A stretch of 64,000 nt of DNA, taken from the NCBI GenBank assembly GCA_021789895.1, contig JAJYIU010000002.1:93805-157804 (forward strand). The letters are read 5' to 3'. This document shows, piece by piece, positions 3,999-45,880 of the stretch. The first letter of the stretch is position 1. Each line of letters opens with the position of its first letter. Origin of the DNA: Acidobacteriota bacterium (GTDB lineage Bacteria; Acidobacteriota; Terriglobia; Terriglobales; SCQP01). The position numbers and the translations under genes were made by a program. The notes below the pieces were generated by a model. It was not told the origin of the DNA. It was given only the letters and a program-made list of their open reading frames with translations, and did no database searches.

Positions 3999-5390
3999 TT
4001 AATGAACCCCCTCGGTATCCGAACGCCGGGGGATTATCGGGGCGGCGGCAGTCCCGCTTAGCAGGCCTGCGAGCAGTAGTATGGCTGGAATATGTAAATT
4101 AAATTGCACTAAAGACGTGAGCAATACGCTGGCGATTCCCATCGCCGCCATCCAGCGCAATTTTTCGCCCCAGCGGCTCGCGTGTGACAGTGACGTCAAC
4201 CGGCTGGCAAACAATCCCAAACCGAGCAGCGCAAGCAGTGAGCCGATGAGGCCAGTTTCCGCCAGCCACTGTAGCCAGTCATCGTGTGCGTATTCAATCA
4301 CTGCATTGAGATACAGGTGATTATAGCGGTAATAAACCGGTTGCCAAGTTCCCAGGCCCCAACCGGTCCACGGGTGTTGCCGCCACAGGGCCAGGGTGCT
4401 ATGGTCCAGCGCAATCCGCTGTTGCGTCGAAGCTTGCGACTGCAGATGCATCACCCGCAGGGTCTGCGGCGCCAGGCCGCTGAAACTGACTATGACGAAC
4501 AACAACAGGCAGAACCCCGCCACCAGCCAGGGGGATTTGCCGCTGCTGCTTGCGGCTCCCGGCGCCCGGGAACCGGCGGCGCCCGAAGCGTCAGGTTTGC
4601 GCCGGCGCCAACGTTGCACCAGCCAGAGCGTCCAGATCGCTTCCACGATAAGCACCAGCAGCCCGCTCAGGCTGCGGGACAAGACTACGTCGGCCACCCC
4701 GACGGCAGGGATCAGCGCCCAGAGCAGGGCCCGATCCGGCCGTGAGCGCGCATGCCAGGCTTGCAGCACACTGCCCGGTAAAAGCATATCCATGCAGGCG
4801 GCGAAGTTGTCCCGGTTGACAAATGGCCCGAAGGGTTTGGCCAGCAAATAATGGAAATGCCAGTAGATGCCGTTGCTGCCGCTTCCCCATTCAACCAACC
4901 CCAGCCAGGCCAGCGCGCCGCATAAGATCGCCAGGCGCCGGGACATCCATACGTTATCCACCCGGGCCTGATAGTTTTGGCTGACCAGAAAATAGATGGC
5001 TGCCGCGCCCAGGCCGTGCAGCAGCGCGGTCAGCGTGCGGCCGGGCACGGGGGAAATCCACAGCCATTGAATGGTGATCCAGGCCAGCACAGCCAAAATC
5101 GGAAGCAGCAAGGGATCCGGCCGCAGCCGCTGTCGGCCGCGCGACAATTGCACCGCCCATAGCAGCAACCCTATATCCAGCAGTGCGTAAGCCGGGATAA
5201 AAACCCAGAAATAAACCCCTCCGAAGGCGAATACCGACCACGCTGCCGCGCCGAATGCCAGATAAAGCAAAAACCGCGGCGTGCTGAAATTCCAACGCCA
5301 GTTCTCGAGCCGGTGCTTCCAGGCCGCCAGGCGCGATGGGCGGGCTGCGCCCGCGGGCTTGGCGGTGGCATTGGGAGCTTGTATGCCCAT
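3999..5390 (-). CDS. O-antigen ligase / Wzy_C family membrane protein (putative EPS polymerase or ligase)
   Basis: Multi-TM protein with the Wzy_C-type motif YAHDDWLQWLAETGLIGSLL. I place the start at the internal ATG (MGIQAPN...), which overlaps the upstream gene's stop as TAATG at 5388-5392. The 5391-5663 extension in the ORF track is Arg/Gly-rich and overlaps the upstream CDS. Confidence 0.75.
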   Translation of the reverse strand: MGIQAPNATAKPAGAARPSRLAAWKHRLENWRWNFSTPRFLLYLAFGAAAWSVFAFGGVYFWVFIPAYALLDIGLLLWAVQLSRGRQRLRPDPLLLPILAVLAWITIQWLWISPVPGRTLTALLHGLGAAAIYFLVSQNYQARVDNVWMSRRLAILCGALAWLGLVEWGSGSNGIYWHFHYLLAKPFGPFVNRDNFAACMDMLLPGSVLQAWHARSRPDRALLWALIPAVGVADVVLSRSLSGLLVLIVEAIWTLWLVQRWRRRKPDASGAAGSRAPGAASSSGKSPWLVAGFCLLLFVIVSFSGLAPQTLRVMHLQSQASTQQRIALDHSTLALWRQHPWTGWGLGTWQPVYYRYNHLYLNAVIEYAHDDWLQWLAETGLIGSLLALLGLGLFASRLTSLSHASRWGEKLRWMAAMGIASVLLTSLVQFNLHIPAILLLAGLLSGTAAAPIIPRRSDTEGVH

Positions 5391-6790
5391 TACGGATGCC
5401 TCGCGGCGCGAACAGGGTTCGATAAATTGGCCGGCCCGGCGGTTGGACTGCCCTCCGCCGGCGCGCGCACCGAAATGCGGCGCACCCAGAATCTTCCATC
5501 CAACCGGTTGGCGCCGAAAGGTCTTCGGTACGAAAGCAGGAGTTGATAAGCCGCGATTGGCGGCGATACGGCCGGCGGCGCGCTCGCCCGGCGCGGATTC
5601 TGCGCCGGCATGACCGCCGCGGATGCCGCCGGCAAGGTAAACTCCGCGTGCGCGGATTGCCATTCAGCCCCGGTTTTGAGCGGCAGCGTGAACAGCGGCG
5701 CGCTCCCCTGCCGCAGTTGCAGAAAAAAGCCGCCGCACTCGGCCGGATCACGGCGCGATTGGCAGCGCGTTTCCGCGGCCACTTTCAGGGTTGCTTCCGG
5801 CGGCGCAAACAGCCATTGGCGGAGCAGGCTCACGCGCCGGTCGCCTTCCATCCCGTTCATATCCACCACCAGCCGGCCGCCGTCGGGTGGTTCCTCCAGG
5901 CTCAATTGCGTCGCGGCGTCTCCGATGGGAAACCAGCTCAGCCATCGGACGTTATTGGCGCTGTATCGTTGCAGGCTGCCGGCAGGAAACCCGGACGCGC
6001 TGATCAATTCACCTCGCGCTTGCTTCCGCTCGCCTTGATACAGCCCGGTCTCGATCCCCCGGTTCCAGATCATCAACGCTTCGGCGGGATCCGACTTCAA
6101 ATCGCGCTGTAACGTCGCATCCAGTGTGCTGCGGACGAACGCTTGGCGTTGCGGCGTCAGCCCATGGCTCAGCAGAAATAAGCGGGCGAGGGCGGTGTGC
6201 AGCTCGCTGTCCGGTTGGAATTGCTGAACCATGCGCACGTAACCCGCCGCTGCCGCCAGCGAACGCGCCGGCAGCCGTGCCCACACCACGCGCGCCGGAG
6301 TATCGGGTATCGTCAGGGCGCGCGCCAGCATGGGATCGTAATAGCTGTCCGCGGCCAACCGGCAGCTCTGCTGAAATTCCCGCCAAAACTGCGCGCGGTC
6401 GCCGCCGGCGAGCCAGAGATTCGCGCGCAGCCAATGCAGCCTGAAACTGTAAGGAAAATCCTTGACGGCGCGGTCTGCCAGCCGGGTGGCGCGCGCTCCC
6501 TCGCCCGCCCCCAGTTCGGCGGTAATCAGGTCCATGCGGCTCAGCGGGTTTTCCGGATTCAGGCGGATCGAGCGCTGTAAAATCGGAATCGCCTGCTGCG
6601 GGTGCGTACCCAGCACCTGTTCGCCCCACACCCGCCAATAAGTCGCATTGTCCCGGCGCCAAAAAGCGGCCTGGGGAAATTCGGCGCGCTGTGCGTAGCG
6701 GTCCGCCCGCCAGGTGGCGAACCCGAGGCTGAGCGCAAACAGTCCGATCACGCCTGGCGCCAGCGCCGGCGCCCAACGCCGCCAAAACAT
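5390..6790 (-). CDS. hypothetical membrane-anchored protein: helical TPR-like region plus beta-rich C-terminal domain
   Basis: 466 aa with an N-terminal TM helix (APALAPGVIGLFALSLGFA). A helical repeat-like middle region (QAIPILQRSIRLNPENPLSRMDL...) is followed by a C-terminal ~170 aa without recognisable motifs. Translationally coupled to the Wzy-like gene. Confidence 0.6.
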   Translation of the reverse strand: MFWRRWAPALAPGVIGLFALSLGFATWRADRYAQRAEFPQAAFWRRDNATYWRVWGEQVLGTHPQQAIPILQRSIRLNPENPLSRMDLITAELGAGEGARATRLADRAVKDFPYSFRLHWLRANLWLAGGDRAQFWREFQQSCRLAADSYYDPMLARALTIPDTPARVVWARLPARSLAAAAGYVRMVQQFQPDSELHTALARLFLLSHGLTPQRQAFVRSTLDATLQRDLKSDPAEALMIWNRGIETGLYQGERKQARGELISASGFPAGSLQRYSANNVRWLSWFPIGDAATQLSLEEPPDGGRLVVDMNGMEGDRRVSLLRQWLFAPPEATLKVAAETRCQSRRDPAECGGFFLQLRQGSAPLFTLPLKTGAEWQSAHAEFTLPAASAAVMPAQNPRRASAPPAVSPPIAAYQLLLSYRRPFGANRLDGRFWVRRISVRAPAEGSPTAGPANLSNPVRAARHP

Positions 6791-8656: not shown

Positions 8657-9697
8657 ATGGGCGTTATGACGGAAGAATCGGCGCCCGCCCCCGCCGCCAG
8701 GTCCAGCCCCCGCCGGTTAACCGGGATGAACCCTTTGGCCTGGCTCCGCCGCCAGCCCGCTTATCTGGACTTTCGTTGGGCGACGCGGGAAGGCCTGGCC
8801 CGCGCCTGGCGGCGCCATGCCTGCGAGCGCCGCATCCTCGACACCCCTCCGCTCTGGACCGCTGCGGCCTCCCGCCGCATCGAAGTGCGCGCCCTGACCT
8901 GGCGGCGCGATTGTCTCGATCTGATCTGGGCCTTGAAGAGCTTTTATTTCTTCGCCGGGGTGGATTATCCCCTGGTCATCCACGACGGCGGCTTGTTGCC
9001 GCGGCAGTTGCAGCTCCTGCGGCGGCATTTCCCCAATGCCGGCTTCGTCACCGCCGGCGAGGCCGAACTGCGGGTGCCGGCCGAGCTCGAACGCCGCGGC
9101 CTCCGGCGCTGCCGGGCTTATCGCCGTAGCAATGTCGCCACCCGCAAGCTGTTCGACTTCTTCCTCTTCTCTGCCGCCGAGTATGTGATCTCGATTGATT
9201 CCGATATCGTGTTCTTCCGCCGCCCCGATCGGTTGTGCATCCCGCCGCAGGGCGATTTCAAGAATCGCTATAACAAAGATGCGGGCTACTGGTACTCGAT
9301 GAGCCTCGATGAGCTGGAGGCCAACTTTGGCATTCGCCCTCCCGAGCGCATCAACTCCGGCCTCTCGCTGGTTCGCCGCGCTTCGATGGATTTCGAAGCG
9401 ATGGAGCGCTGGCTGGCCCATCCCAAATTGTTCGCCGATCAATGGGTCACGGAACAGACCTTGCACGCGCTCTGCGCCGGCCTCTACGGCTTCGAATTCC
9501 TGCCGGATACTTACTGTGTCAGCACCAGCCCGGGCTTGTCTCCGGAGATGGTTTGCAAGCACTATCCCGGCTTCTTCCGCTATCTGCAATATGAAGAAGG
9601 CATGGCGCGCCTGATCGAAACCGGCTTTCTGCAGGCGCTGCGCCGCCAAACTTCTTTTGCGCCGCCGGCGAGCCCCGAAACGCTCGGCCCTGCTTAA
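8657..9697 (+). CDS. putative GT-A-fold glycosyltransferase (DxD motif)
   Basis: ORF 8450..9697 overlaps the flippase, so I use the ATG at 8657 (alternatives at 8666 and 8726). It has a DSD motif in a hydrophobic context (YVISIDSDIVFFRRP) and no TM helices. The family assignment is not certain. Confidence 0.5.
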   Translation: MGVMTEESAPAPAARSSPRRLTGMNPLAWLRRQPAYLDFRWATREGLARAWRRHACERRILDTPPLWTAAASRRIEVRALTWRRDCLDLIWALKSFYFFAGVDYPLVIHDGGLLPRQLQLLRRHFPNAGFVTAGEAELRVPAELERRGLRRCRAYRRSNVATRKLFDFFLFSAAEYVISIDSDIVFFRRPDRLCIPPQGDFKNRYNKDAGYWYSMSLDELEANFGIRPPERINSGLSLVRRASMDFEAMERWLAHPKLFADQWVTEQTLHALCAGLYGFEFLPDTYCVSTSPGLSPEMVCKHYPGFFRYLQYEEGMARLIETGFLQALRRQTSFAPPASPETLGPA

Positions 9698-10551
9698 AAT
9701 TCCAAACGATAGTCTGGCTTGCCGGGATCGTTGGGCCAATCCAATCCCGGAATCGGATAGCTCTCTCGCGCGCGGCTTTCCTGCTGCCCGTGCATGAGGT
9801 CCTTGTTTAGAAAAGTAACTTCCAGCACGCTCGGCGTCGCCGAGCCCGGAATCAACCGGGCCCAGTTGTTGCCGTGAATGTGCGTAACTTCAAACTTGTC
9901 CCGCAACTGGTTCACCATCCCGGCGAAATTCGGCCATAGTATGTCCAGCTCGTGAAACTCCACCGCCATTCCACTCACATACTCTGCAAATGGCTCCAGG
10001 TCGGGCAAGATCCGGAACTCCGATTGCTCGATATCCATTTTGATGAAAACGGAATTTTTCGCGATCCCGTCTTTTTGAAGCATCGAAAAGATATCGCCCA
10101 AGGTAATGAATCCCGGGCCGTTCTCGTTGGAGACTCCTTGTTGAAAACATCGCACATTCTCGCCGGCGCAAAACGAGCGGAAGTCGAAATACAAGCGGGC
10201 GGCTTTTTTAACCTCCCGCAGCCGCTGCCATGCCGCTCGCCAACGCCCCAAGAGCAGCAACGTCAAAAATCTCAGGCTGAGGATTTCATTCAGGGCGTTG
10301 CTCAGCCGCCCACGGAAAATATCCCGGGATACGGAATGATCGAAACAGAGTATTTTGATTTCAGGCTTTCGCTTCCGGAAATCCGCCTCAAACGACCAAT
10401 CGTTGCCCAAGCCCAGGCTGATCAGATATCGCGAGTGAAGAATCGCTGCCTGGTTGATGACATACCCCCCGTCGGCATCCCTCCCGAGTCGCACCAGATC
10501 GTTCAAGCATCTCGGCCGGTAGCTGGCAAGGGACGGCGGCATGATCTTCAT
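9694..10551 (-). CDS. FkbM-family SAM-dependent methyltransferase
   Basis: FkbM signature FIKMDIEQSEFRILPDL ... GMAVEFHELD. The ORF begins with TTG at 10602; ATG candidates are at 10551 and 10542. Its stop codon overlaps the convergent GT stop (TTAA at 9694-9697). GC is visibly lower than in the neighbouring genes. Confidence 0.75.
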   Translation of the reverse strand: MKIMPPSLASYRPRCLNDLVRLGRDADGGYVINQAAILHSRYLISLGLGNDWSFEADFRKRKPEIKILCFDHSVSRDIFRGRLSNALNEILSLRFLTLLLLGRWRAAWQRLREVKKAARLYFDFRSFCAGENVRCFQQGVSNENGPGFITLGDIFSMLQKDGIAKNSVFIKMDIEQSEFRILPDLEPFAEYVSGMAVEFHELDILWPNFAGMVNQLRDKFEVTHIHGNNWARLIPGSATPSVLEVTFLNKDLMHGQQESRARESYPIPGLDWPNDPGKPDYRLEF

Positions 10552-10767
10552 CTGGGGATATCGCACCCCGTATTTTCCTGTTTCCGTCCAAGCTCGCTGC
10601 AAAGGCTCCGGGGCGCCCTGGTTCTTTGGAAGCTCTCCCTGGATTGCAGCAAGAAACGTACGCCAGGCGATTCATAATGCCATAAATTCTATGCCGGTGA
10701 TTCGACCGCCACGATTCGTTTCCATGCATTCCTCTCGGAATTGAATTTGCATCCCTAAACGTTGAGA

Positions 10768-11916
10768 TCAGCCGGACGTTTGCGTAAAAGATTCTCCCGT
10801 AACCCGGCGGATCGCCTGCACCACCTCTTCCACCTGTATGGAAAGCATGCACGCGCTTTTGACCGGGTGCGCGCATTCGCCTGGCGTCAGCCCGCGAAAG
10901 TTTCGAATGCAGGGGGCGCAGGGCAGGCCGCTCTGCCGCACCAGGATGGCCCGCGGTCCCCACGGCGCCCATTGCTCCGGGGCGGTGGGGCCGAACAGCC
11001 CGACGGTGGGCGTCCCCTGGGCCGCCGCCAGATGCATGATTCCGGTATCGCCGCTGACCACCACCTGCACACGTTCGCAGACCGCCGCCAGTTCTTCGAT
11101 CGTGAAGGCCGGGCATGCCACCGAGCGTCCCGAAAAACCCCGGGCGAATTCGCCGGCCAGCGGTGCTTCCGGCGGCGTCGCGGTCAGCAGAAACACGGTG
11201 GCGCGATCGCGTTCCCGCAGGCGCTCGGCTAATTCGATGAAACGGGCGACCGGCCAGCGTTTGAAATCGTGCACCGTCCCGCAGCCCGGGTGTAGCAGGA
11301 TCGCCGCCGCCCCGTCTGGCATGGTGGCTTGCCACCAGGTGTTCACCCTGCTCCGGGCTGCTTCCGGAATCCGAATCGGCGCCGGCGCGGCCGGCAGGGT
11401 CAAATTCACATCGTAGGCCTTCGCCAGTTCCCAAAGCATTTGCCAATGGGTGCGCCGTTCGTCCAGCCGGATCGCATGGGTGAAATACCGCGCCTGCGGG
11501 CAATCGCACAACGGCTCGAAGCCGATGCGCCGGGGAATGCCGCAGGCTTCCAGCAGGGCCGCCACCATCACCGAGGTATGCTCGGTGGCGATCGCCGCCG
11601 TATAGCCTTGCTTGTTGATTTCCCCGATCAATCGCAGCCGGCCGCGCAGGCTCTGCTGCGCCGGTTCGATGCGGTGCTCGGCCGCCAATGGCAGCGTGCG
11701 CATGACTTCGAGGCCGAGACGGCTGCCCAGCACCCCCAACTTCAGGTCCGGATTCGCGCGTTGGAGGTGCGCGAGGATCGAGCGTGCCAGTACGGCATCG
11801 CCCAGCCCGCGCGTGCACGTGACCAGCAGCCGCGCAGCCTGGCCCTCCGCCGCTGCCGCGCGGCGCCGCCGTGCCCAAAGCAGGATGCAGCGTTGCGCCA
11901 GCGTTCGAGCCTTCAT
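10768..11916 (-). CDS. glycosyltransferase family 9 (heptosyltransferase-like)
   Basis: GT9 motifs: LLVTCTRGLGDAVLA near the N-terminus and VVSGDTGIMHLAAAQGTPTVGLFGPT near the C-terminus. Start placed at the internal ATG (MKARTLAQ...); the upstream extension to 12120 is Gly/Arg-rich. Confidence 0.8.
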   Translation of the reverse strand: MKARTLAQRCILLWARRRRAAAAEGQAARLLVTCTRGLGDAVLARSILAHLQRANPDLKLGVLGSRLGLEVMRTLPLAAEHRIEPAQQSLRGRLRLIGEINKQGYTAAIATEHTSVMVAALLEACGIPRRIGFEPLCDCPQARYFTHAIRLDERRTHWQMLWELAKAYDVNLTLPAAPAPIRIPEAARSRVNTWWQATMPDGAAAILLHPGCGTVHDFKRWPVARFIELAERLRERDRATVFLLTATPPEAPLAGEFARGFSGRSVACPAFTIEELAAVCERVQVVVSGDTGIMHLAAAQGTPTVGLFGPTAPEQWAPWGPRAILVRQSGLPCAPCIRNFRGLTPGECAHPVKSACMLSIQVEEVVQAIRRVTGESFTQTSG

Positions 11917-22413: not shown

Positions 22414-23292
22414 TTAAATCGTTTCCATGCTGCGATGGAGCCCAAACAGCCGCGTCAGGGCAACCAGTTCCCGGCCGCTCGACGGCAAATCCCGGCAGAC
22501 CAGGCTCAAGCGCGCCTCGCGCTTTCCCGCGATCAAACGCAATGGCAGCAGCTCTCCGCCGTCCAGATCGGCCTGGATGCGATGTCGCGGCAGCCAGCCA
22601 AAGCAAAGCCCGCTGCGCACCGCGGCGACCGCGGCCTCGATGGTGTTGACCGCGAGATAGCGTTGCGCCGCCCCGCGCGGCTGGCGGCGGCTGGAGCCTG
22701 CATCCTCGATCACTGCCAGCATGTGCTGCATCAAATCAACCCGGGTAATGTTCCGCTTGTGGGCATGCAGCGGATGATCGCGCCGGGCAACCGCAAGCAG
22801 CTCGATGGCCAGAATCGGTTGCACGAAATACTCGTTCGTTGCCAGTGCGGAAATGCATAAATGCGCATGCTGTGCGGTGAATTCGGCGTCGGCCGAAAGC
22901 AGCGTGGCTTGCCGCAGCCGCGGCTGGGTGTAGGGAAAAAGGCGGCTGAATTCCGCCAGGACCGCAAACAACCGCTCGTAGGGATAAATGCTGTCCACCG
23001 ACAGCCGGATTTCCGACATCCCGCCCGTGGCCAGCGAGCGGGCGCGCTGCTCCAGCCGGCGAAAGCCCGTTAAGTGCGGCTCGGCATCGGTCAACAGCAT
23101 GCGTCCGGCTTCGGTCAGGTGCGCTTTTCTGCCGCGCAGCTCGAACAATCGCACGCCAAGCTGCTCTTGCAGCCGCGTAATGGCATAGCTGATGGTGGAT
23201 TGCGAGCGGTGCAGTTGTTTGGCGGCGGCGGCGAAGCTGCCCAGTTGCACCACGGCGTGCAGGATTTCCCAGGCGTCGAGGGTGGAGTTCAT
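22414..23292 (-). CDS. LysR-family transcriptional regulator
   Basis: N-terminal wHTH (LHAVVQLGSFAAAAKQLHRSQSTISYAITRLQEQLGVRLFELRGRK) and a LysR substrate-binding domain. Start at the ATG at 23292 (MNSTLDAW...). Confidence 0.9.
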   Translation of the reverse strand: MNSTLDAWEILHAVVQLGSFAAAAKQLHRSQSTISYAITRLQEQLGVRLFELRGRKAHLTEAGRMLLTDAEPHLTGFRRLEQRARSLATGGMSEIRLSVDSIYPYERLFAVLAEFSRLFPYTQPRLRQATLLSADAEFTAQHAHLCISALATNEYFVQPILAIELLAVARRDHPLHAHKRNITRVDLMQHMLAVIEDAGSSRRQPRGAAQRYLAVNTIEAAVAAVRSGLCFGWLPRHRIQADLDGGELLPLRLIAGKREARLSLVCRDLPSSGRELVALTRLFGLHRSMETI

Positions 23293-23388
23293 GTCCTGAA
23301 AATATCGAATATTTCGATCAATGGCGGGTAGAAATTCGACTTTCCATGCGGGTTTCCTGCGGAATATCATGCAGCTTGCTGTCATTCG
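23251..23388. repeat. 138-bp direct repeat, left copy (lysR 5' end plus lysR/GH51 intergenic DNA)
   Basis: Aligns with 24501-24638 at a constant offset of 1250 bp. I counted 4 mismatches (23253, 23271, 23329, 23348). Confidence 0.9.
23304..23318. promoter_or_regulatory. candidate LysR-type (T-N11-A) box ATCGAATATTTCGAT
   Basis: ATC-N9-GAT imperfect dyad 12 nt upstream of the lysR ATG. Duplicated identically at 24554-24568. Confidence 0.4.
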
Positions 23389-23711
23389 CTCATGGAGGTG
23401 AGCTTTATAGCAAGGAAGAATTGGTTGCCGAGATGGGAGCTGCTTTCCTTTGCGCTATCGCCGGTATCGTCAACGAGCATACCGGCCGCAACACTATTGC
23501 ATACCTTTAGATCTGGATTGAAAAACTGGAAGAGGATAACTGCCTTATTATTCATGCGCCGCGAACGCGCAGAGAGCCGTGGACATGATTCTCGGCAGCA
23601 ACTTTGAGGAAGAGAACAATACAACCGAACGACGGGGATGTCGCTGTCAGCGGCATCCCGCAGCCGTTGCGATAAACACTGCTCTGACGGTTTACGGCCA
23701 TGCTCATCTCT
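23389..23711 (+). pseudogene. 3' remnant of an ArdC-like (zincin/antirestriction, DUF1738-associated) gene
   Basis: My translation from 23388 is AHGGELYSKEELVAEMGAAFLCAIAGIVNEHTGRNTIAYL*IWIEKLEEDNCLIIHA, then a frame change near 23556-23560 to AANAQRAVDMILG.... The pattern Y..EELVAE.GAAFLCA ... AYL..W...L..D ... AA..A..A.D.IL is as I recall ArdC C-termini. There is an in-frame TAG at 23508-23510, and the 5' part is missing at the repeat junction. Confidence 0.55.
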
Positions 23712-23730
23712 GAGCAGTGGCCGGATGCTT

Positions 23731-24129
23731 CTATCCGGCCCGCAGATATTCCGAGGGAGTGATAATGCGCGTTCCCTTGTACGTGCCGAGAGTCAACAAA
23801 TCCTTGTCGCCTACAACCAGCAAATCAGCTTTCGCAAGGGCGGCGCACTCAAGAAACATATCGTCGTTCGGATCACGGCAGACCTTTACCGTGCCTCGAA
23901 TCTTCACGCGGATACCACGCGCCAGAATCGTTTGCAGCGCCGAGGTTGCGCGGTGTCGTTCCCAGGAGAATTTTTCCGTCAGGACGCGCACAATCTCCGC
24001 GTCAATTTCATCGCAGGTGGCAATCACGTCTTGGCTCATCGCCTTTTCAAGCGCCAGAGTCGGCGTGCCGCGACGTTTTGCAAACTGAAGCGCGGAAATC
24101 CAGACGTTTGTGTCTACGACGACGATCAC
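23731..24129 (-). CDS. PIN-domain toxin (PIN_3 / TIGR00305-like)
   Basis: MIVVVDTNVWISAL ... CRDPNDDMFLECAALAKADLLVVGDKDLL ... ITPSEYL, with the acidic PIN residues in place. The GTG start overlaps the antitoxin stop (GTGA). Confidence 0.85.
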   Translation of the reverse strand: MIVVVDTNVWISALQFAKRRGTPTLALEKAMSQDVIATCDEIDAEIVRVLTEKFSWERHRATSALQTILARGIRVKIRGTVKVCRDPNDDMFLECAALAKADLLVVGDKDLLTLGTYKGTRIITPSEYLRAG

Positions 24130-24416
24130 CCGTTAGATCGTACCTTGCGGCGGCGCGGCTTCTCGGCGCGCACTTCTTTGATGAGCCGGGGCACATCGGC
24201 TTCGGTGTAGCCCTTGGGATTGCGGCCCGCTGCGTATTCGCCCAACTCATCCAGTGTCCGCCGCGCCTGCTGCGCGGAGTAGGTGCGGAAGGCTTCGCGA
24301 AATAGCTCGCTCATGGTGCGGCTGTCCCGCTGTGCCAGCGCTTCGGCCCTCTGCGCGAGTTCAGGTGGCAGGCTAATCGTATAGACCTTAGATTTCCTTG
24401 CGGTAGTAGTAGCCAT
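24126..24416 (-). CDS. ribbon-helix-helix (CopG/MetJ-type) antitoxin
   Basis: KVYTISLPPELAQRAEALAQRDSRTMSELFREAFRTY is a beta-strand followed by two helices, as in RHH proteins. It lies upstream of, and overlaps, the PIN gene. ATG at 24416; the track ORF starts at TTG 24422. Confidence 0.8.
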   Translation of the reverse strand: MATTTARKSKVYTISLPPELAQRAEALAQRDSRTMSELFREAFRTYSAQQARRTLDELGEYAAGRNPKGYTEADVPRLIKEVRAEKPRRRKVRSNG

Positions 24417-24433
24417 ATCCAAAGTATTACACC

Positions 24434-24450
24434 GTAATGGATTCCATTAC
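24434..24450. promoter_or_regulatory. candidate TA operator: perfect palindrome GTAATGGA-T-TCCATTAC
   Basis: Arms of 8 bp, located 18 nt upstream of the antitoxin ATG. An extra ATTAC half-site is at 24426-24430. Confidence 0.4.
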
Positions 24451-24500
24451 AACTTCAAGTACCATAGGAAGCCCTATTCCGAACGCGTAAATTAACAGCA

Positions 24501-24638
24501 CATGGCGTGCAGGATTTCCCGGGCGTCGAGGGTGGAGTTCATGTCCTGAAAATATCGAATATTTCGATCAATGGCGGGCAGAAATTCGACTTTCCATTCG
24601 GGTTTCCTGCGGAATATCATGCAGCTTGCTGTCATTCG
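24501..24638. repeat. 138-bp direct repeat, right copy (orphan lysR start plus GH51 upstream region)
   Basis: See the left copy. It contains an orphan minus-strand ATG with about 13 lysR-like codons (MNSTLDAREILHA) and runs up to the GH51 Shine-Dalgarno sequence. Confidence 0.9.
24554..24568. promoter_or_regulatory. candidate LysR-type (T-N11-A) box, second copy, upstream of the GH51 gene
   Basis: Identical ATCGAATATTTCGAT inside the right repeat copy, 85 nt upstream of the GH51 ATG. Confidence 0.4.
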
Positions 24639-24652
24639 GCAAGGAGAAATCG

Positions 24653-26803
24653 ATGTCTTTCCCCAAATTTGGCTGCGGGGCCGTGTTATGGCTGCTGGCG
24701 GTTTCAGCGCCGGCAGCAGCGCCCCGGCAATCCGCCGCCGCCGCCCCGCGCCGGTTGATCGCGGTCGTTCATGCGCAGCGCGCCGCCCGGCCCGTCTCGC
24801 GCTATGAGTACGGCATGTTTATCGAGCATATCGGCACCCTGATCTATCGCAGCCTCTGGGCTGAAATGCTGGACGACCGCAAATTTTATTTCCCCATCGT
24901 GCCGCCTCCGCTCCATCCCCGGCCCGCGCCCGGCGGCTTCTTTCGCCGGATGCGGCTGCGCCGCTGGCGGCCGGTGGGCCCGGGCAATTTTGTCTCCATG
25001 GATCCCGCTCATCCCTTCGTCGGCCGGCATAGCCCGCGTATCCAACTCGACCCCCTCCGGCCGCGTGGCATTCGGCAATCCGGCCTGGCGCTGGTCAAGG
25101 GTCAACGCTACATCGGCCGTATTTATCTGCGCGGCACTTCCGGCGCCCGGGTAAAAGTTGCGCTCATCTGGGGCGCGGGCGCGCATGATCGGCAGACTCT
25201 GGCCATGCCCCGGCTATCCGCCGGCTATCGCAAATTCCCGCTTCACTTCACCGCCCGGGCCGGCACCGGCCGGGGAGTGCTGGCCATCACCGGCTTGGGG
25301 TCGGGCAGCTTTCATGTCGGCACAGTATCCTTGATGCCCGCCAATAATGTGGATGGCTTCCGCCCCGAGGTGATCGCGCGCCTGCGTTCCCTGCACTCCG
25401 GCTTTTGGCGCTTGCCGGGCGGCAACTTCGTCTCCGATTTCAACTGGTACGACTCGGTCGGCAACCGCGACCGCCGCCCGCCCGTTCGGGATTACGCCTG
25501 GAACGCCGTGCAGTCGAACGATGTGGGCCTGGATGAATTTATGACCTTCTGCCGGCTCATCGGCGTCGCGCCCTACATCACCGTCAATGCCGGCTTTGGC
25601 GATGCGCACTCGGCCGCGGCAGAAGTCGAATATCTCAACGGCCCCGCCTCCAGCCGCTTAGGCGCGCTGCGCGCCCGCAATGGACATCCCGCGCCTTATC
25701 ACGTCCAATTTTGGGATATCGGCAACGAGCCCTATGGCCCCTGGGAATTGGGCGTCACCCCGCTGAAGTATTACCTGCTCAAGCACAACCAGTTCGCCCG
25801 CGCCATGCGCCGGGCCGATCCCTCCATCACCTTGCTCGCCTCCGGCGCCATGCCCGACGAGGAAACCATCGAAGGCATCGCCCACGGCCTGCATTTGAAA
25901 AACGATCAGGTCCCCTTCTGCTCCTCCGCCGATTGGACTTGCGGCTTCCTCCAGCATAGCTGGGGCAATTTTGACGGCATTACCGAACACTGGTACGCGC
26001 GCGCCGGGGTGCGCTTCGACTTGCAGCGCGCCATCCAGGGGCTGCGGGTGCATGGCATGGAGGCCGGCTACGTGCCCGCCCGGCAAAGCGTGCTCGAGTG
26101 GGTGCGCGTGCCCTCCGATCGCCTGCATCTGAAAGCCGAGGAATGGCAGCAATATCAGCAGCGCTTCCCCGCCATGCGCCGGAAAAAAATCTTCATGTCG
26201 GTGGATGAATACGCTTATACCGGCGCGCCGCCGAATCTGAAGCTCGCGCTCGCCTACGCCATGGTGTTCAACGAGATGCTGCGCCACACCGGATTCCTCC
26301 GGATGTCGGCCTTCACCATGGGCGTTTCCACCCTGGATTTCAACCGCACCTCTGCGGCGCTGAACTCGACCGGCCTGCTGTTCAAACTCTACGGAGAGCA
26401 TATGGGCGCTGGCATGCTGCCCCTCTCCGTCACCGGCAATTCGCCTCAGCCGACGCCCGCTCAGCGCTATATTGACGGCCTGCCGCGGACCAGTGCCGGC
26501 AGCCCGACCTATCCGCTCGATCTGGTGGCGGCGCTCACCCCAGATCGCAAATTTCTCACCTTGGCCGTCGTCAATGCGACCGCGTCGGTGCAGCCGCTGG
26601 CTTTGAAACTCCAGGGCCTGCGGCTCGCGGGCTCGCCCACGCTCTGGGAAATGACCGGCTCGTCGCTGGCCGCCGCCAACCGCCTCGGGCACCCGCCGCA
26701 AGTCGAAATCCGGCGAAAGCAACTGGCGGGCGCGCCCGCTGCGCTCTCCGTTCCGCCCATCAGCGTGGATATTTACCGCTTTCCCGTGGCGCCCGCTCGC
26801 TAA
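24653..26803 (+). CDS. GH51-like alpha-L-arabinofuranosidase (secreted)
   Basis: AAGGAG Shine-Dalgarno sequence at 24641-24646. Signal peptide MSFPKFGCGAVLWLLAVSAPAAA. GH51-like motifs: YGMFIEH, LPGGNFVSDFNWYDSVGNRDRRPP, FWDIGNEPYGPWELG (acid/base Glu), FMSVDEYAY (nucleophile Glu). Confidence 0.8.
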   Translation: MSFPKFGCGAVLWLLAVSAPAAAPRQSAAAAPRRLIAVVHAQRAARPVSRYEYGMFIEHIGTLIYRSLWAEMLDDRKFYFPIVPPPLHPRPAPGGFFRRMRLRRWRPVGPGNFVSMDPAHPFVGRHSPRIQLDPLRPRGIRQSGLALVKGQRYIGRIYLRGTSGARVKVALIWGAGAHDRQTLAMPRLSAGYRKFPLHFTARAGTGRGVLAITGLGSGSFHVGTVSLMPANNVDGFRPEVIARLRSLHSGFWRLPGGNFVSDFNWYDSVGNRDRRPPVRDYAWNAVQSNDVGLDEFMTFCRLIGVAPYITVNAGFGDAHSAAAEVEYLNGPASSRLGALRARNGHPAPYHVQFWDIGNEPYGPWELGVTPLKYYLLKHNQFARAMRRADPSITLLASGAMPDEETIEGIAHGLHLKNDQVPFCSSADWTCGFLQHSWGNFDGITEHWYARAGVRFDLQRAIQGLRVHGMEAGYVPARQSVLEWVRVPSDRLHLKAEEWQQYQQRFPAMRRKKIFMSVDEYAYTGAPPNLKLALAYAMVFNEMLRHTGFLRMSAFTMGVSTLDFNRTSAALNSTGLLFKLYGEHMGAGMLPLSVTGNSPQPTPAQRYIDGLPRTSAGSPTYPLDLVAALTPDRKFLTLAVVNATASVQPLALKLQGLRLAGSPTLWEMTGSSLAAANRLGHPPQVEIRRKQLAGAPAALSVPPISVDIYRFPVAPAR

Positions 26804-31886: not shown

Positions 31887-32264
31887 TCATGCCAGACTCC
31901 TTCCCGTGATCACCCCGGCCCAGACCGCCGCCAGTCCGGCGCCGACGCTGAATACGATATTCAGCGCCGCGATCAGGAATTCTCCATCTTCAAATACGCG
32001 AAAAGTCTCGTAAGTAAACGATGAGAAGGTGCTGTACCCGCCCAAAAAACCAATCACCAGCAGGTATCCCCAGAACGGGTCGAAATGCGCCCGCTCGGCC
32101 AGGAGGGTCATGATCAAGCCGATCAGAAAGGAGGCGCTAACGTTGATTGCTAATGTGCCGTAGGGAAAACGGATTCCCCACCGCTCGCCCACCTGGCCGG
32201 CCGCCCAGAATCGCAGCATCGAGCCTGCGGCGCCGCCGAGTGCGATGATCAGGTACTTGGTCAT
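31887..32264 (-). CDS. crcB: fluoride ion channel CrcB/FluC
   Basis: 125 aa with 4 TM helices. Motifs: GGAAGSMLRF, FPYGTLAINVSASFLIG, GFLGGYSTFSSF. Start at the ATG at 32264 (MTKYLII). Preceded by a fluoride riboswitch. Confidence 0.9.
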   Translation of the reverse strand: MTKYLIIALGGAAGSMLRFWAAGQVGERWGIRFPYGTLAINVSASFLIGLIMTLLAERAHFDPFWGYLLVIGFLGGYSTFSSFTYETFRVFEDGEFLIAALNIVFSVGAGLAAVWAGVITGRSLA

Positions 32265-32417
32265 ACCCTCCGCTCGTTGTCCTCTCCGCTTGCAGGCCCT
32301 ATCCCGCCGCTCCCGGCTCATGCGGAACGCGGAGCCTCAGCCGCAGCGGCTCAATTTGACCTTCGAGGGTTCGTGCGGACGGGGGGAGAGCTGATGATTC
32401 CACCAAGGCAAAAACCC

Positions 32418-32472
32418 TCGTAGGAGTCATCTGCCCCGGAATGGGGCGGTTAGGGGTGAACTCCAACACCCG
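32418..32472 (-). promoter_or_regulatory. fluoride riboswitch (crcB RNA motif) aptamer
   Basis: Minus-strand RNA GGUGUUGGAGUUCACCCCUAACCGCCCCAUUCCGGGGCAGAUGACUCCUAC. Elements: P1 GGUG/CACC; pseudoknot GGAG/CUCC; conserved AACCGCC; P3 CCCC-AUUCC-GGGG; GAUGACUCCUAC. It matches the B. cereus crcB aptamer from memory (GGCGAUGGUGUUCGCCAUAAACGCUGCUUAGCUAAUGACUCCUAC). Confidence 0.85.
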
Positions 32473-32648
32473 TGAACAATTTCATTATTTTCTCGCCCCC
32501 GCCTTAAAGTCAATGGATCGCAGCTCGCTTACCGCCTCGCTCCTTGATTCGTGCAGGACCGTGAGGTTGAGCCTGCGTTCAAAGGCATCGAAATCGCAGT
32601 CGCGATGCCGCGGCAAGTGCACTGCTTGCAGGCAAAGGGTTGCGAAGC

Positions 32649-35453
32649 TCAGCGGGCGTGAAACAGAACTACATCGGAAGATTGCTGCAGGCGGGCAATG
32701 GCGAGGGTGCCATCCGGCGCCCAGGCGTAGCCGGCGATCTGACGGTCGCGGAAATGTGTGAGCTGGCGCGGCTGGCCAAAAGGCAGATTATTGCGCAAGG
32801 TCTGGAGCCAGATGTTTTGAATTCCGTGCACGGTGCGCACGTAGCTGATCGCCTGCCCGTCGGGCATCCATTCCGGTAATTGATGCAGCGGAAAATAGCT
32901 GATTTGTCGAGGCTGATGCAGGTAGAAAATGGCGCTGACCGCCTTGCCGGTTTGCGGATCGTGGGTTTCAATCAGCAGCCGCTGCCCTTTCGGGGAAAGC
33001 CGCGGTTGATACATCATGCCTATAAATTGCTGCGCTACCTGCCGCCCGCTTCCACCTTGCCGCGGCATGCGATATAGAGTCTGATAATTGTTGTTTTGCT
33101 TCACGTAATAGATCGTCTGTCCGCCAGCGCCATAGAATCCGGCGATTGCATTGCTTTTGAGCAAATGCGAAGGGCCGCCGGCAAGTTGCGCGAGATGCAG
33201 GGTGGCATCACTATAGCCGCCGAAGAGGAAATGGCGGCCGTTGGGGGAGACCACTAAATACGAGGGCGAGATTTGGTTCTGCGTGATTTGCGCGGCGGGT
33301 GTGTCGGACCCCCACTGTGCCCGCCAGATATTTTCATAGCCGGGCTGATGGCGGGTAAAGAGCAGATCGTGCTGCGCGCCCCAGGCTAAGCTGTCCATGC
33401 CGGGCAGATTGCTGCTGGAAGCGATCCACGGCTGGGGCGCGCTTTGCTGCCGCGGCCAGATCCAGATGGCGCTGCTGGCGCGTTTTTCTACCGTGGCCAG
33501 GGTTTGTCCGTTCGCGGTTAGGCTCAATCCGGAAAAAGCTCCCAGGCCGCTGGTAATGGTGGCGCTTTGCCCGCTGGGATAGCCGATCAATTCAATCTGG
33601 GGCGAGTAGAGCATGCTGAAATTGCCGCTGGCCACGGTCCAAAGCTCCCGCGTGCCGGGCAATGCTTCTAAGTCCATATAGATCGCATTCGGTCCAAACA
33701 AGCGCTTCTGCCCGGTGGCCACATTGACCGCGGCCAGACGGGTGTTGGTGCCATTTTTCGTCAAAATGCCGTAAATCCGGCGGCCGTCGCGCGACCAGGC
33801 GAGAACTTTAGTCTGAGGCGTATAGGTAACCCCGAAAGACAAGCTGGAATTAGTCCATTGCATCGTGGGCGGCGCGTCGGCCAGCTTGTGGGAAACGGCC
33901 ATATCGCTGGAAGCGATCCGGAGTTGGTCTATGTTTTTGGTTACATCGAAGCGGATGAATGCGAAGCGATGGCCGCCGGGAGAAAATGCGGGCAAACTTT
34001 GAATATTATCCAGCATCAGGCGCGCCTGGCCGCCCAGCACTGGGATCTGATAGAGGCTGGGGCGAACCAGATTGCCGGCCAGAAAATAGAGATAATTGCT
34101 GTCCGGAGTGAAGATCAGGCCGCGGTAACCCCGGTAAATGCCGGGGGCGACCACCTGTACGCCGCCGGGCGTGGCGATTTGGTGCAGCCATAAGCTTTCG
34201 CCTTGTGCGGTTTGGCGGATATAGGCTACATACTGGCCATTGCGCGAGATGGCGGCATAGGTGATATTGCCGGAAGAGGTGAATTGTTCCGCGCGCGGAT
34301 GCTGCCAGGCGCGGAGCAATGCCTGAGCGCCGGCCAGATACTGCCGCCAAATCCAGTCGCCGCTGCCGGCCAACAGCAGCAACAAAGCTCCGATAAACAG
34401 GCCGCGGCGATGCCGCCGGAGAAGGGCGGAAACGATTTGCGAATCGGATGCCGGGGCGGCCGGGATGGCCCTGGGCGCAGCCGAAACCGGTTCGGCGCGA
34501 CTGGCGGGCGCCGGCGCGCGCACTGCCGCTGCCCCCGCGCCGGCTTCGGCCGCGATCGCGGCGGTCATGCGGCCGGCGCTGGCGCGCTCTAGGCGCTTCA
34601 GGTCGGCGCGCACTTCGGCCGCGGTCTGGCAGCGCAGTTCGGGATCCTTTTCCAGCATCTTGGCCACGATCGCATCCAGCTCCGGCGGCAAATCGGGACG
34701 TGATTGGCGCAGCGAGAGCGCCGGATCGGCCAGGATCTGCTTAAACGTTTCCGCCGCCGATTTGCCATTGAAAAGTTGCTGCCCGGTGGCCATTTCATGG
34801 AATATCACGCCCAGCGAGAATAGGTCGGATCGCGCGTCAGCGGTTTCGCCTCGGGCCTGCTCGGGCGACATGTAAGCCACCGTGCCCAAGGTCATGCCCG
34901 GAGAAGTCAACTGGTCGGGCATGACGGTCACGGTTTCCGCCTGGGAATCGAACCCCGGCAGCGAGGGTCGGGTGATGCGCGCCAAGCCGAAATCGAGGAT
35001 TTTGGCATCGCCGCGGCGGGTGATGATGATATTGGCCGGCTTCAGATCGCGATGGATCAGCCCTGCTTGGTGGGCGGCCGCCAGGCCATCGGCCAACTGA
35101 ATGCCCCAGTGCAGAATCTGCGGCAGCGGCTGCGGCTGGCCATGGATTTTCTCGCGCAGAGTCTGACCCTCAAGCAGTTCCATCACCAGAAACGGCTGCG
35201 GCGGTTCTCCCGTCCGTTCCGCTTCGCCCACTTCATGCAGGACACAGATGTGCGGATGGTTCAGGGCGGCGATGGCGCGCGCCTCGCGTTGAAAACGTTC
35301 CCGGGCCGCCGCTTGGGCCACGAGCGATGGCGGTAAAAGCTTGATGGCCACGCGCCGGCCCAGTCGCAGATCCTCGGCCACATAGACTTCACCCATGCCG
35401 CCTGCGCCCAGCTTTTGCAGAATCCGAAAATGGCTGAAGCTTTCCCCAAGCAT
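32649..35453 (-). CDS. Hanks-type Ser/Thr kinase - TM - TolB-like (PD40/WD40-like) beta-propeller sensor protein
   Basis: N-terminal kinase domain (GAGGMGEVY, VAIKLL, HRDLKPANIII, DFGLARI, YMSPEQ), then an Ala-rich linker and a TM helix (GLFIGALLLLLAGSG). The remaining ~550 aa are periplasmic with repeated PD40-like blades (SRNGQYVAY, FSPGGHRFAF, SRDGRRIY, LSPKGQRLL, WMPDGQAISY). Confidence 0.9.
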   Translation of the reverse strand: MLGESFSHFRILQKLGAGGMGEVYVAEDLRLGRRVAIKLLPPSLVAQAAARERFQREARAIAALNHPHICVLHEVGEAERTGEPPQPFLVMELLEGQTLREKIHGQPQPLPQILHWGIQLADGLAAAHQAGLIHRDLKPANIIITRRGDAKILDFGLARITRPSLPGFDSQAETVTVMPDQLTSPGMTLGTVAYMSPEQARGETADARSDLFSLGVIFHEMATGQQLFNGKSAAETFKQILADPALSLRQSRPDLPPELDAIVAKMLEKDPELRCQTAAEVRADLKRLERASAGRMTAAIAAEAGAGAAAVRAPAPASRAEPVSAAPRAIPAAPASDSQIVSALLRRHRRGLFIGALLLLLAGSGDWIWRQYLAGAQALLRAWQHPRAEQFTSSGNITYAAISRNGQYVAYIRQTAQGESLWLHQIATPGGVQVVAPGIYRGYRGLIFTPDSNYLYFLAGNLVRPSLYQIPVLGGQARLMLDNIQSLPAFSPGGHRFAFIRFDVTKNIDQLRIASSDMAVSHKLADAPPTMQWTNSSLSFGVTYTPQTKVLAWSRDGRRIYGILTKNGTNTRLAAVNVATGQKRLFGPNAIYMDLEALPGTRELWTVASGNFSMLYSPQIELIGYPSGQSATITSGLGAFSGLSLTANGQTLATVEKRASSAIWIWPRQQSAPQPWIASSSNLPGMDSLAWGAQHDLLFTRHQPGYENIWRAQWGSDTPAAQITQNQISPSYLVVSPNGRHFLFGGYSDATLHLAQLAGGPSHLLKSNAIAGFYGAGGQTIYYVKQNNNYQTLYRMPRQGGSGRQVAQQFIGMMYQPRLSPKGQRLLIETHDPQTGKAVSAIFYLHQPRQISYFPLHQLPEWMPDGQAISYVRTVHGIQNIWLQTLRNNLPFGQPRQLTHFRDRQIAGYAWAPDGTLAIARLQQSSDVVLFHAR

Positions 35454-45437: not shown

Positions 45438-45581
45438 GGGGTACTTTCAGCCGGAGAGCCGCCAGTTTTTCTGCCGACAGTTCACCGCCGAATTGCCGTG
45501 GCCGCGCGACGCCTTCGGGGACGCGGGCTATGCTAGGCTCAAGGGAGCGGCGCGCGAGTGCGGCCCGCGAGGAGCAGAGGC

Positions 45582-45761
45582 ATGTCAATCAGCCAGGAGT
45601 TGCTGGACATACTGGTTTGCCCGGAAGACAAAGCGAAACTGAAACTGGTGGCGGACGGCTCCGGTCTGGAGTGCCAGAAATGCCGGCGGATCTATCCGAT
45701 CCGCGATGGGATACCGGTGATGCTGGTGGAAGAGGCGCGGCTGCCGGAGCAAGAAAACTGA
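45582..45761 (+). CDS. Trm112/YcaR (UPF0434) family small protein
   Basis: LLDILVCPEDKAKL ... CQKCRRIYPIRDGIPVMLVEEA. Confidence 0.8.
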   Translation: MSISQELLDILVCPEDKAKLKLVADGSGLECQKCRRIYPIRDGIPVMLVEEARLPEQEN

Positions 45762-45880
45762 AGCGGCACGGCTTTTATCGCACCAAGACTTTGGGGTTGC
45801 AAACAGCGGGGCATGCCATTTCTAATTTATCCGTCTGAAAACATACCAACCGGATCATCTCCCAAACCTAGAAATCATCT

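Follow-up and report, generated by a model that had tools for sequence, protein, structure and literature searches.

A toxin–antitoxin pair in an island fragment, bracketed by two copies of a lysR–GH51 control region in an acidobacterial genome

Introduction

The subject of this report is a 64,000-nucleotide stretch of an Acidobacteriota genome (Terriglobia, Terriglobales; GenBank assembly GCA_021789895.1, contig JAJYIU010000002.1, positions 93,805 to 157,804 of the forward strand), referred to here as the window, which is part of contig k141_1427670 of ENA entry ERZ27233565. Within it, a lower-GC insert of 1.1 kb, carrying a toxin–antitoxin (TA) pair and the remnant of an ArdC-like gene, separates lysR from a divergently oriented gene for a GH51-like arabinofuranosidase, and is bracketed by two copies of a 138-bp direct repeat that holds every conserved block of the control region between those genes. 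We tentatively favour an explanation in terms of insertion with long target duplication, by illegitimate recombination; a preliminary description of the same DNA had read the repeats as attL and attR, left by an integrative element. The evidence below is compatible with both origins of the repeat, and our preference between them is a mild one.

Results

A 138-bp direct repeat brackets a lower-GC insert

The two copies of the repeat lie at 23251-23388 and 24501-24638, at an offset of 1250, and are identical at 134 of 138 positions; a repeat search (a two-copy family at 97% identity) and a base-by-base comparison bear out the length, offset and number of mismatches first reported for them. The four mismatches are at 23253 (C/T), 23271 (A/G), 23329 (T/C) and 23348 (G/T). 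The right edge is sharp, with identity collapsing just beyond 23388/24638, and the left edge is fuzzy, in that the third base is already the first mismatch and blastn extends the alignment to 23247/24498 with one gap. The insert proper (23389-24500, 1,112 bp) has a GC content of 0.551, against 0.655 and 0.653 for the left and right flanks, in keeping with the low GC that had been apparent by inspection. A third copy of the repeat was found neither in the 64-kb window nor in some 170 related loci, and the window holds no other repeat of this type and no tRNA gene.

Two rather prosaic origins for such a structure, an assembly artefact or the target-site duplication of a transposon or miniature inverted-repeat transposable element, we consider very improbable. 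The sequence does derive from a metagenome assembly, and the length of the repeat is close to that of the largest MEGAHIT k-mer (141). However, because the copies differ at four positions, and because a separate Logan unitig (L082; SRR13170411, 1,193 bp, k=31) spans both junctions, a duplication made by the assembler is excluded; this unitig matches window 23359-24551 at 100%, and its ends fall exactly where k-mers turn unique to each junction. The same architecture has, moreover, been assembled independently in two samples at another locus (L170 and L175, see below). Transposons and insertion sequences (IS) usually duplicate fewer than 15 bp of their target, and come with terminal inverted repeats and a transposase. 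Here, a repeat search found no inverted repeats at the insert ends, a Pfam scan of the window found no transposase, and 138 bp is far beyond any transposase footprint; the transposon reading was rejected on these grounds, as the preliminary description had already argued from the length of the repeat. A tblastn search with the integrase of a related island (L109, see below) likewise gave no match in the window.

Each gene retains a complete control region

The lysR gene (22414-23292, minus strand) encodes a LysR-type regulator of 292 amino acids (aa; Pfam HTH_1, 2.6e-20, and LysR_substrate, 5.2e-17). Its true start is the ATG at 23292-23290, rather than the upstream ATG at 23385: the N-terminus read from the former, MNSTLDAWEILHAVVQ, aligns with orthologues, and the identical 292-aa protein is called in public assemblies. 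A sub-threshold Rfam match to SgrS inside lysR was treated as chance. On the far side of the insert, the gene for the 716-aa GH51-like alpha-L-arabinofuranosidase (24653-26803, plus strand; Pfam ASD1_dom and Alpha-L-AF_C) begins with an ATG at 24653. Flanking genes encode GH3, esterase and GH30 proteins, and the locus is a hemicellulose-utilisation cluster.

The left repeat copy (R_L, 23251-23388), which serves lysR, comprises codons 1-14 of that gene and 96 bp of upstream control region; the right copy (R_R, 24501-24638), which serves GH51, comprises a now dead 5' fragment of lysR and the entire control region. A LysR-type transcriptional regulator (LTTR) box, read from the sequence as ATCGAATATTTCGAT (T-N11-A, a 6-3-6 palindrome), occupies 23304-23318 in the left copy and recurs identically, 1250 bp on, at 24554-24568 in the right, such that each gene keeps its own copy of the operator, as first proposed. 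A consensus promoter scan picks out TTTCCA-18-TATCAT at 24591-24620 (plus strand), some 33 nt upstream of the GH51 ATG, together with an orphan copy of the same site at 23341-23370 (plus strand) that points into the ArdC remnant, antisense to the TA genes.

Searching GTDB species genomes with the GH51 protein brought up 206 relatives, with 80 loci at 55-73% identity. Six of these loci (L014, L015, L022, L029, L032 and L068) have a single divergent lysR–GH51 intergenic region of 148-236 bp, without TA or ArdC genes, although the relatives concerned are distant (LysR 61-64% and GH51 60-71% identical); if the two flanks of the insert are fused across a single repeat copy, an intergenic region of 110 bp results. 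When both window copies are aligned with the six relatives, three conserved blocks emerge, all within the repeat: the palindromic T-N11-A box, ATATCGAAnAATTCGATCAAT; a second block, GAAAT...CTTTCCATTCGA, overlapping the -35-like TTTCCA; and a third, the -10-like TAnnATGC. Blocks 2 and 3 coincide with the promoter-like site TTTCCA-18-TATCAT in both copies. The left copy supplies lysR with 96 of its 110 native upstream bases, every conserved block included, and the right copy gives GH51 all of its native upstream DNA; because the repeat holds every conserved regulatory block (LTTR box, -35 and -10), both genes keep a full control region. The earlier suggestion that the lysR promoter had been partly replaced by island DNA is not borne out, whilst that of an LTTR box within the repeat gains support from its conservation in the six orthologous regions. 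With a predicted T-N11-A box in a short intergenic region, conserved among orthologues, we take this to be a putative LysR-type divergent regulator/target promoter.

The six relatives, each with one control region and no TA, also support the idea that the insert is foreign and its presence derived. A single-copy, ‘empty’ site had been proposed as a check, and these loci are distant approximations to one; none was found at strain level, where the nearest LysR homologue in databases is 69% identical and the best GH51 relative in GTDB species genomes 73%. Exact-protein look-ups for LysR and for the two TA proteins returned only the window contig, one near-identical contig and the 1.2-kb Logan unitig.

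An intact toxin–antitoxin pair beside a decayed ArdC gene

The insert opens, on the left, with an ArdC pseudogene remnant (23394-23713, plus strand; Pfam MPTase-PolyVal, 1.9e-11), amounting to the last ~108 codons of a gene for ~360-390 aa. It matches positions 72-124 of 126 in the MPTase-PolyVal profile, which is the C-terminal zincin part, and tblastn with the full-length ArdC of L109 (393 aa) recovers only residues ~287-393 in the window. The remnant is interrupted by a TAG stop (23508-23510) and by frameshifting deletions at 23558, 23630 (2 nt) and 23660. Convergent with it lie the genes for an intact PIN-domain toxin (PIN_3, 132 aa; 23731-24129, minus strand; Pfam 1.5e-15), which has no indels relative to its relatives, and an intact CopG-type RHH antitoxin (RHH_1, 96 aa; 24126-24416, minus strand; Pfam 2.4e-5), the latter overlapping the PIN start by 4 nt. 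A conserved 19-nt operator site containing a palindrome, TTGTAATGGAATCCATTAC on the TA strand, sits at 24434-24452, with 17 nt separating it from the RHH ATG downstream. Where ArdC and PIN converge, blastn finds a self-complementary match (inverted repeat, 23632-23663) which, as a weak terminator-like call, may be a terminator. Pfam scans thus agree with the gene content given in the preliminary description on both sides of, and within, the insert.

The predicted pair, its 4-nt overlap and its palindromic operator are those expected of a type II PIN (VapC-like)/RHH toxin–antitoxin module, and we designate it a putative one. Its toxin belongs to a very populous and unusually well-conserved family: the PIN protein has 606 homologue clusters, the best 120 of them at 80-92% identity and nearly all of 129-141 aa, and its own 90% cluster has 1,194 members; the exact 96-aa RHH falls in a cluster of 554. 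Relative to the corresponding genes elsewhere, the ArdC remnant is 83-86% identical, whereas PIN and RHH are free of indels and mostly 91-95% identical (RHH 88-95%, five loci compared). This pattern suggests that the TA pair stayed under selection while the neighbouring ArdC rotted; the view that the element had decayed and its TA survived is upheld by one stop and three frameshifts in ArdC against an indel-free PIN/RHH pair. A reading of the insert as a retro-copy was rejected, since the TA operator and promoter, which lie upstream of the transcript, are part of it.

The insert resembles one end of a small integrase-bearing island

A scan of metagenomes returned 80 loci, about 35 of which share 83-91% nucleotide identity across window 23394-24452, a span made up of the ArdC 3' part, PIN, RHH and the operator. 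ArdC is of full length wherever the locus is long enough (363 aa in L104, 393 aa in L109; both with ArdcN and MPTase-PolyVal). In four loci from peat and soil metagenomes (L109, 5679-10328; L128, 5679-10304; L133, 5679-10290; and L099), the RHH-PIN and ArdC block forms one end of a shared unit of ~4.6 kb, in which a HigB-like toxin, its HTH_3 partner and a tyrosine integrase of 473 aa are also encoded; L104 (5679-11760) is a larger variant of ~6.1 kb with an HTH_17 Xis-like gene and a 475-aa integrase. By this comparison, the window insert (23389-24500) is a 1.1-kb internal piece of such an island. At the other end of the unit, the integrase side finishes in ...TCATCCTGAGCGAAGC, and in L109 an IS (4468-5628; DDE_Tnp_1 with DDE_Tnp_1_assoc) directly abuts the TA-side end.

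Across L097-L176, the ArdC remnants beside the PIN stop form a nested series of lengths, from zero to full length, with breakpoints at the window equivalents of ~23743, 23730, 23700, 23690, 23640, 23577, 23538, 23510, 23445 and 23394. The upstream arms on the TA side fall into several classes, shared over variable lengths (-6 to -65 bp). Among loci with enough flanking DNA, the TA occurs in at least 21 distinct flank contexts, at 85-95% nucleotide identity, and it is the constant part, with its surroundings whittled or exchanged. One further relative (L083:1-8070, the end of a 108-kb contig, ENA ERZ27237183) encodes a PIN 91% identical to that of the window in a conjugative-element context (TrwC relaxase, ParE/RelB, SNF2 helicase and a Gp49/HI1420 pair), with no adjoining ArdC. 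PLSDB plasmids gave no nucleotide match, IMG/VR a single PIN of 32% identity, and the exact-protein contexts P0053 and P0040 a single widespread chromosomal context without repeats.

These islands bear directly on the model put forward in the preliminary description, taken here in a fuller form whereby a whole island integrated through an att or homology segment that included the lysR 5' end and promoter, by site-specific or Campbell-type crossover; the repeats would then be attL and attR, and a later illegitimate deletion would have removed the integrase, Xis/HigBA and most of ArdC. This is a possible account, although on balance an unlikely one. An island family with integrase, ArdC and TA exists, as had been predicted; the TA is its terminal operon, the order and orientation of the insert fit attL – [integrase ... 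ArdC – PIN – RHH] – attR, and the nested ArdC remnants show progressive loss of neighbouring DNA. As for the capture of host gene ends in att sites, e14 and phage 21 both carry the 3' end of icd in this way. On the other side, none of the ~90 related TA loci examined carries lysR-like or repeat-like DNA, and around the intact relatives L104, L109, L128 and L133 no flanking repeats of at least 25 bp were found (the island ends are not precisely mapped). No tRNA was seen in 14 island loci. The model also calls for at least two events, and for an island variant with at least 138 bp that are 97% identical to the host control region.

The junctions and the mismatches

At the equivalent of the left junction, 17 intact ArdC genes read ...GACCGTTTCGGAGATGAGC (in longer context, ...GACCGTTTCGGAGATGAGCTTTA). 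In the window, ...GTCATTCG is followed by CTCAT and then by GGAGGTGAGCTTTA, with homology to ArdC beginning at 23394; the left repeat copy abuts ArdC at about codon 265 through this 5-nt filler (23389-23393), which matches neither target nor ArdC, and the ArdC gene is cut at the repeat edge. TTCG(G) is a possible microhomology at the join. The filler completes a hairpin (GCTCAT/GTGAGC) across the junction; with z = -2.6, and 6 of 200 shuffles folding as well, this is weak evidence and could be either a trace of fold-back priming or chance. Small inverted repeats straddle both junctions (23375-23415, GCTCAT..GTGAGC with an outer CTTGCT/AGCAAG; and 24495-24512, GCAC..GTGC). We take the left join to be illegitimate, made either at insertion or by a later deletion, and not an island end.

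On the right, the sequence shared with related loci runs out, almost without exception, at 24452-24454, where the palindromic TA operator has its outer edge. Between this edge and the right repeat copy lie 48 AT-rich base pairs (24453-24500; GC 0.40 for 24423-24500) that match nothing in any related locus or elsewhere in the window. A truncated lysR' frame of 16 codons, MNSTLDAREILHAMCC followed by a stop (24492-24542, minus strand), reads from the right copy toward the TA operon.

Both ends sit awkwardly with integration of a whole island: the left join, with its filler, falls inside ArdC and is no island end, and the 48 bp on the right match no known island arm. A deletion that trimmed the left copy, and so set the present right edge of the repeat, is possible within that model, and would remove the apparent coincidence of an ArdC gene cut exactly at the repeat edge. 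Of the attL/attR claim, then, the island origin stands; on the other side are the absence of an integrase from the window, of lysR-like DNA from the islands and of long repeats around intact ones, and the position of the left join.

As to the four mismatches, the half of each copy that serves the neighbouring gene follows the orthologue consensus, and the other half departs from it. LysR W8 and V14 are kept in the left copy and changed in the right (W8R, V14M); at a conserved C and at the T of CCATTCG, both kept on the right, the left copy has T (23329) and G (23348), the latter, in place of the conserved T, adjoining the -35 of the orphan GH51 promoter copy. The pattern fits in-situ duplication followed by decay of the unused halves, and crossover inside the repeat, equally well, the second being what whole-island integration would entail. 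Because there is no close outgroup, the mismatches cannot be polarised, and four mismatches, with only 14 codons in the repeat, are too few for a synonymous/non-synonymous test.

Parallel loci in the same family

Self-comparison of 93 TA loci brought out three further architectures. In the first, at L170:1536-2705 (L175:242-1411), a minimal RHH-PIN piece of 748 bp is enclosed by direct repeats of 211 bp with 93.4% identity; the two loci, from different samples, are themselves 99.8% identical. The piece is tightly bounded, beginning 16 bp ahead of the operator and ending ~11 bp after the PIN stop. Its repeat runs from the last ~43 codons of an ABC-2 permease gene, through the intergenic spacer, to codon 19 of a gene for a tadA-type deaminase, with the left copy completing the permease and the right copy starting the deaminase; the architecture follows the logic of the window at an unrelated target. 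A 659-bp repeat in L100 was rejected as a target duplication, as it represents two paralogous lipoprotein genes.

The L170 copies differ at 14 positions in 12 codons, 10 of them synonymous and 2 non-synonymous, where ~40% synonymous changes would be expected under in-situ duplication with one decaying copy (P = 0.003). Given this excess, both copies must have been functional alleles until not long ago, one of them from another lineage, whence it came either on the incoming DNA or by homologous recombination at a later time. Homeologous copies are also what would be expected of an att-borne target gene end; for whole-island integration, however, L170 would require two deletions that each stopped within ~16 bp of the TA, yet spared ~200 bp of useless duplicate.

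A further explanation is that a repeat-TA-repeat unit was formed beforehand in another lineage and imported by RecA-dependent homologous recombination, with the repeat copies acting as built-in homology arms, or with an excised repeat-plus-TA circle integrating by a single crossover. The 10 to 2 ratio at L170 would imply just such a meeting of functional alleles from different lineages. In the window, the decayed, donor-like halves of the repeat face the insert and the native halves face the genes, as crossovers within the repeat would give, and a comparable life cycle was proposed by Furuta et al. (PMC2853133) for restriction-modification units with long direct repeats. On the other hand, the window itself offers too few informative sites, no related lineage with its locus is known (the best LysR relative being 69% identical), and the origin of the duplication is left unexplained. 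We regard such an import as improbable for the window.

The remaining two architectures are of a different kind. In L172, a tRNA 3' half is present on either side of the TA (1-177 and 1291-1468), with ~70 nt identical between the copies and the rest ~70% so; in L144/L148, the TA is enclosed by 3' fragments of tRNA-Thr within an array of remnants of islands, the repeats (L144, 5275-5335, 7505-7564 and 9584-9790) being adjoined by fragments of integrase C-termini. Both appear to be ordinary att footprints, in which integrase islands have decayed to TA-only islets, and look like decayed or tandem tRNA-targeted islands that kept their TA. As islets between tRNA 3'-half repeats with no integrase gene, they lend support to whole-island integration in the window as well.

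Discussion

Origin and persistence of the structure

Synthesising these results, we lean, tentatively, towards insertion with long target duplication as the explanation for the structure in the window. Four observations favour it: a filler marks the join within ArdC, none of the islands examined contains DNA resembling the repeat, intact islands are not flanked by long repeats, and the L170 insert is very tight. The site lacks an integrase, a transposase, terminal inverted repeats and a tRNA, and L170/L175 provides a second case, whose flanks (16 and ~11 bp) seem too tight for a whittled island. We envisage that an island fragment entered by illegitimate recombination, using neither a transposase nor the island's own integrase; it may have been captured when two breakpoints lying 138 bp from one another, possibly on sister chromosomes, were connected by end joining or by template switching during replication. 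That the repeat covers exactly the control region could then be a matter of selection, since only insertions that duplicate the whole region would leave both genes regulated.

Several points weigh against this proposal. The mechanism is unexplained even in published cases, such that the proposal names a class more than a chemistry. The order of the insert (ArdC, PIN, RHH, end) is that of the terminal part of the island minus its integrase side, just as integration of a whole island followed by deletion predicts. TA-only islets with tRNA-derived att repeats exist in the same family (L172, L144), the L170 copies differ mostly synonymously, against the expectation for in-situ duplication with decay, and databases hold no strain-level empty site, the next LysR relative being as distant as noted above.

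Common to all versions of the explanation is an argument about persistence. Repeats of 138 bp set 1.25 kb apart should recombine and restore the wild-type site; this would excise the antitoxin gene on a non-replicating circle and leave cells exposed to a stable PIN toxin. Retention enforced in this way by the TA would account for an intact TA beside a rotted ArdC, between repeats that have diverged by 3%; that divergence, and the four disabling mutations in ArdC, are consistent with long retention.

Consequences for the locus

Two complete LTTR boxes now stand 1.25 kb apart. From the geometry, the right copy would contribute, on the minus strand, a lysR promoter region and the 16-codon lysR' frame reading in the sense direction into the TA operon, and the left copy, on the plus strand, an orphan GH51 promoter reading through the ArdC remnant, antisense to PIN/RHH. 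Through these orphan promoter copies, the one in sense and the other in antisense orientation, expression of the TA could become tied to the LysR regulon. More generally, an insertion into a shared divergent promoter can be harmless if the entire control region is duplicated.

How chromosomal TA modules move and become fixed is poorly understood, and here the footprint encloses an RNase-type toxin module that is plainly a broken piece of an integrase island; finding the same footprint around such cargo points to host recombination and addiction-based retention, rather than to a nuclease encoded by the cargo. We might speculate further that long target duplication is independent of cargo and recurrent for acidobacterial PIN/RHH modules, and that repeat-TA-repeat units are homology-armed addiction cassettes, though we consider this doubtful. 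Two unrelated targets are known for such a reading, lysR–GH51 (138-bp repeat) and ABC-2 permease–tadA (211-bp repeat). Were it true, the duplicated target would provide arms for RecA-mediated spread to relatives with a single-copy site, the toxin would penalise the reverse reaction, and the homeologous copies of L170 would be the footprint of such spread. The value of the window locus lies in being a clean, testable example.

Other features of the window

The other long direct repeats in the window are paralogous coding sequence and not insertion footprints. They comprise 48208-48507/50948-51247 (300 nt, 86%), and 14706-14802/34958-35054 (97 nt, 70%) together with 51926-52006/53900-53980 (81 nt, 84%), which both resemble paralogous coding sequence for Ser/Thr kinases. 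GC is also lower at 9001-11000, 32001-34000 and 45001-48000 (0.56-0.60, against ~0.64 for the window), with no match to the island integrase or ArdC.

Comparison with known systems

Insertion with long target duplication is known from work on restriction-modification genes (Nobusato, Uchiyama, Ohashi & Kobayashi 2000, Gene 259:99; Furuta, Abe & Kobayashi 2010, NAR 38:2428, PMC2853133). In the published class, inserts are shorter than 20 kb, repeats longer than 30 bp (cases of ~46-420 bp), mobility genes are absent and the mechanism is unknown; the repeats are unique in the genome, often overlap gene ends, and are represented by one copy at the empty site (PMC2853133). The window has a repeat of 138 bp and an insert of 1,112 bp with a complete addiction pair, no mobility gene, and a repeat that is not tRNA-derived and has no further copy in the 64 kb of genome checked; as for an empty site, the six relatives, which are distant (LysR 61-64%), have a single control region with the same blocks and no TA. 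The likeness extends to a short insert, an addiction-type pair, the lack of integrase and transposase, and unique repeats that overlap gene ends. The window differs in its cargo, a PIN/RHH pair, for which the DNA break suggested by Furuta et al. for restriction-modification inserts (encoded by the cargo; PMC2853133) cannot be invoked; in that its insert is visibly a broken piece of a larger island, with a truncated ArdC; and in its acidobacterial host, with an empty site known from distant relatives only.

The structure also has features of prophage or island att sites that supply a surrogate gene end, in which long repeats keep the target gene intact and the copies differ by a few substitutions. 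Such att repeats range from tens of base pairs to ~165 bp. With att sites in tRNA 3' halves it shares the involvement of an integrase island family, of which the TA family has tRNA-type examples (L172, L144). Unlike att sites, however, the window has neither an integrase nor a remnant of one between the repeats, and no island with a matching attP is known, the intact relatives lacking the same att; the repeat covers a 5' end and a whole divergent promoter rather than a 3' end; and one repeat copy abuts a truncated internal gene of the island instead of a natural element end.

Chromosomal type II TA modules have been viewed as survivors of decayed mobile elements (Van Melderen & Saavedra De Bast 2009, PMC2654758), and the window conforms to this in having an intact RHH-PIN pair with a palindromic operator, spread horizontally, next to element genes that have decayed. 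It departs from the usual remnant in that the TA is bracketed by duplicated host regulatory DNA and is, in principle, easily lost by homologous recombination, which makes its retention informative. As in Campbell-type insertion-duplication, two copies of a homologous segment flank an insert, as hybrids that are native on their outer sides; a Campbell-type event would, however, need a pre-existing circle of TA and repeat, a 1.25-kb unit with no replication or transfer function of its own.

In the literature, of which our coverage is incomplete, we found no direct description of long target duplications around TA modules. Each component belongs to a kind already known, be it the TA, its island family, the survival of TA modules where an element has decayed, att duplications or long target duplications, and no new kind of system is described here. 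What is new is modest: a long-target-duplication footprint around a TA cargo that does not cleave DNA; an insert clearly recognisable as part of a larger island; and a second, independent case in the same TA family, L170, in which the repeat copies are homeologous.

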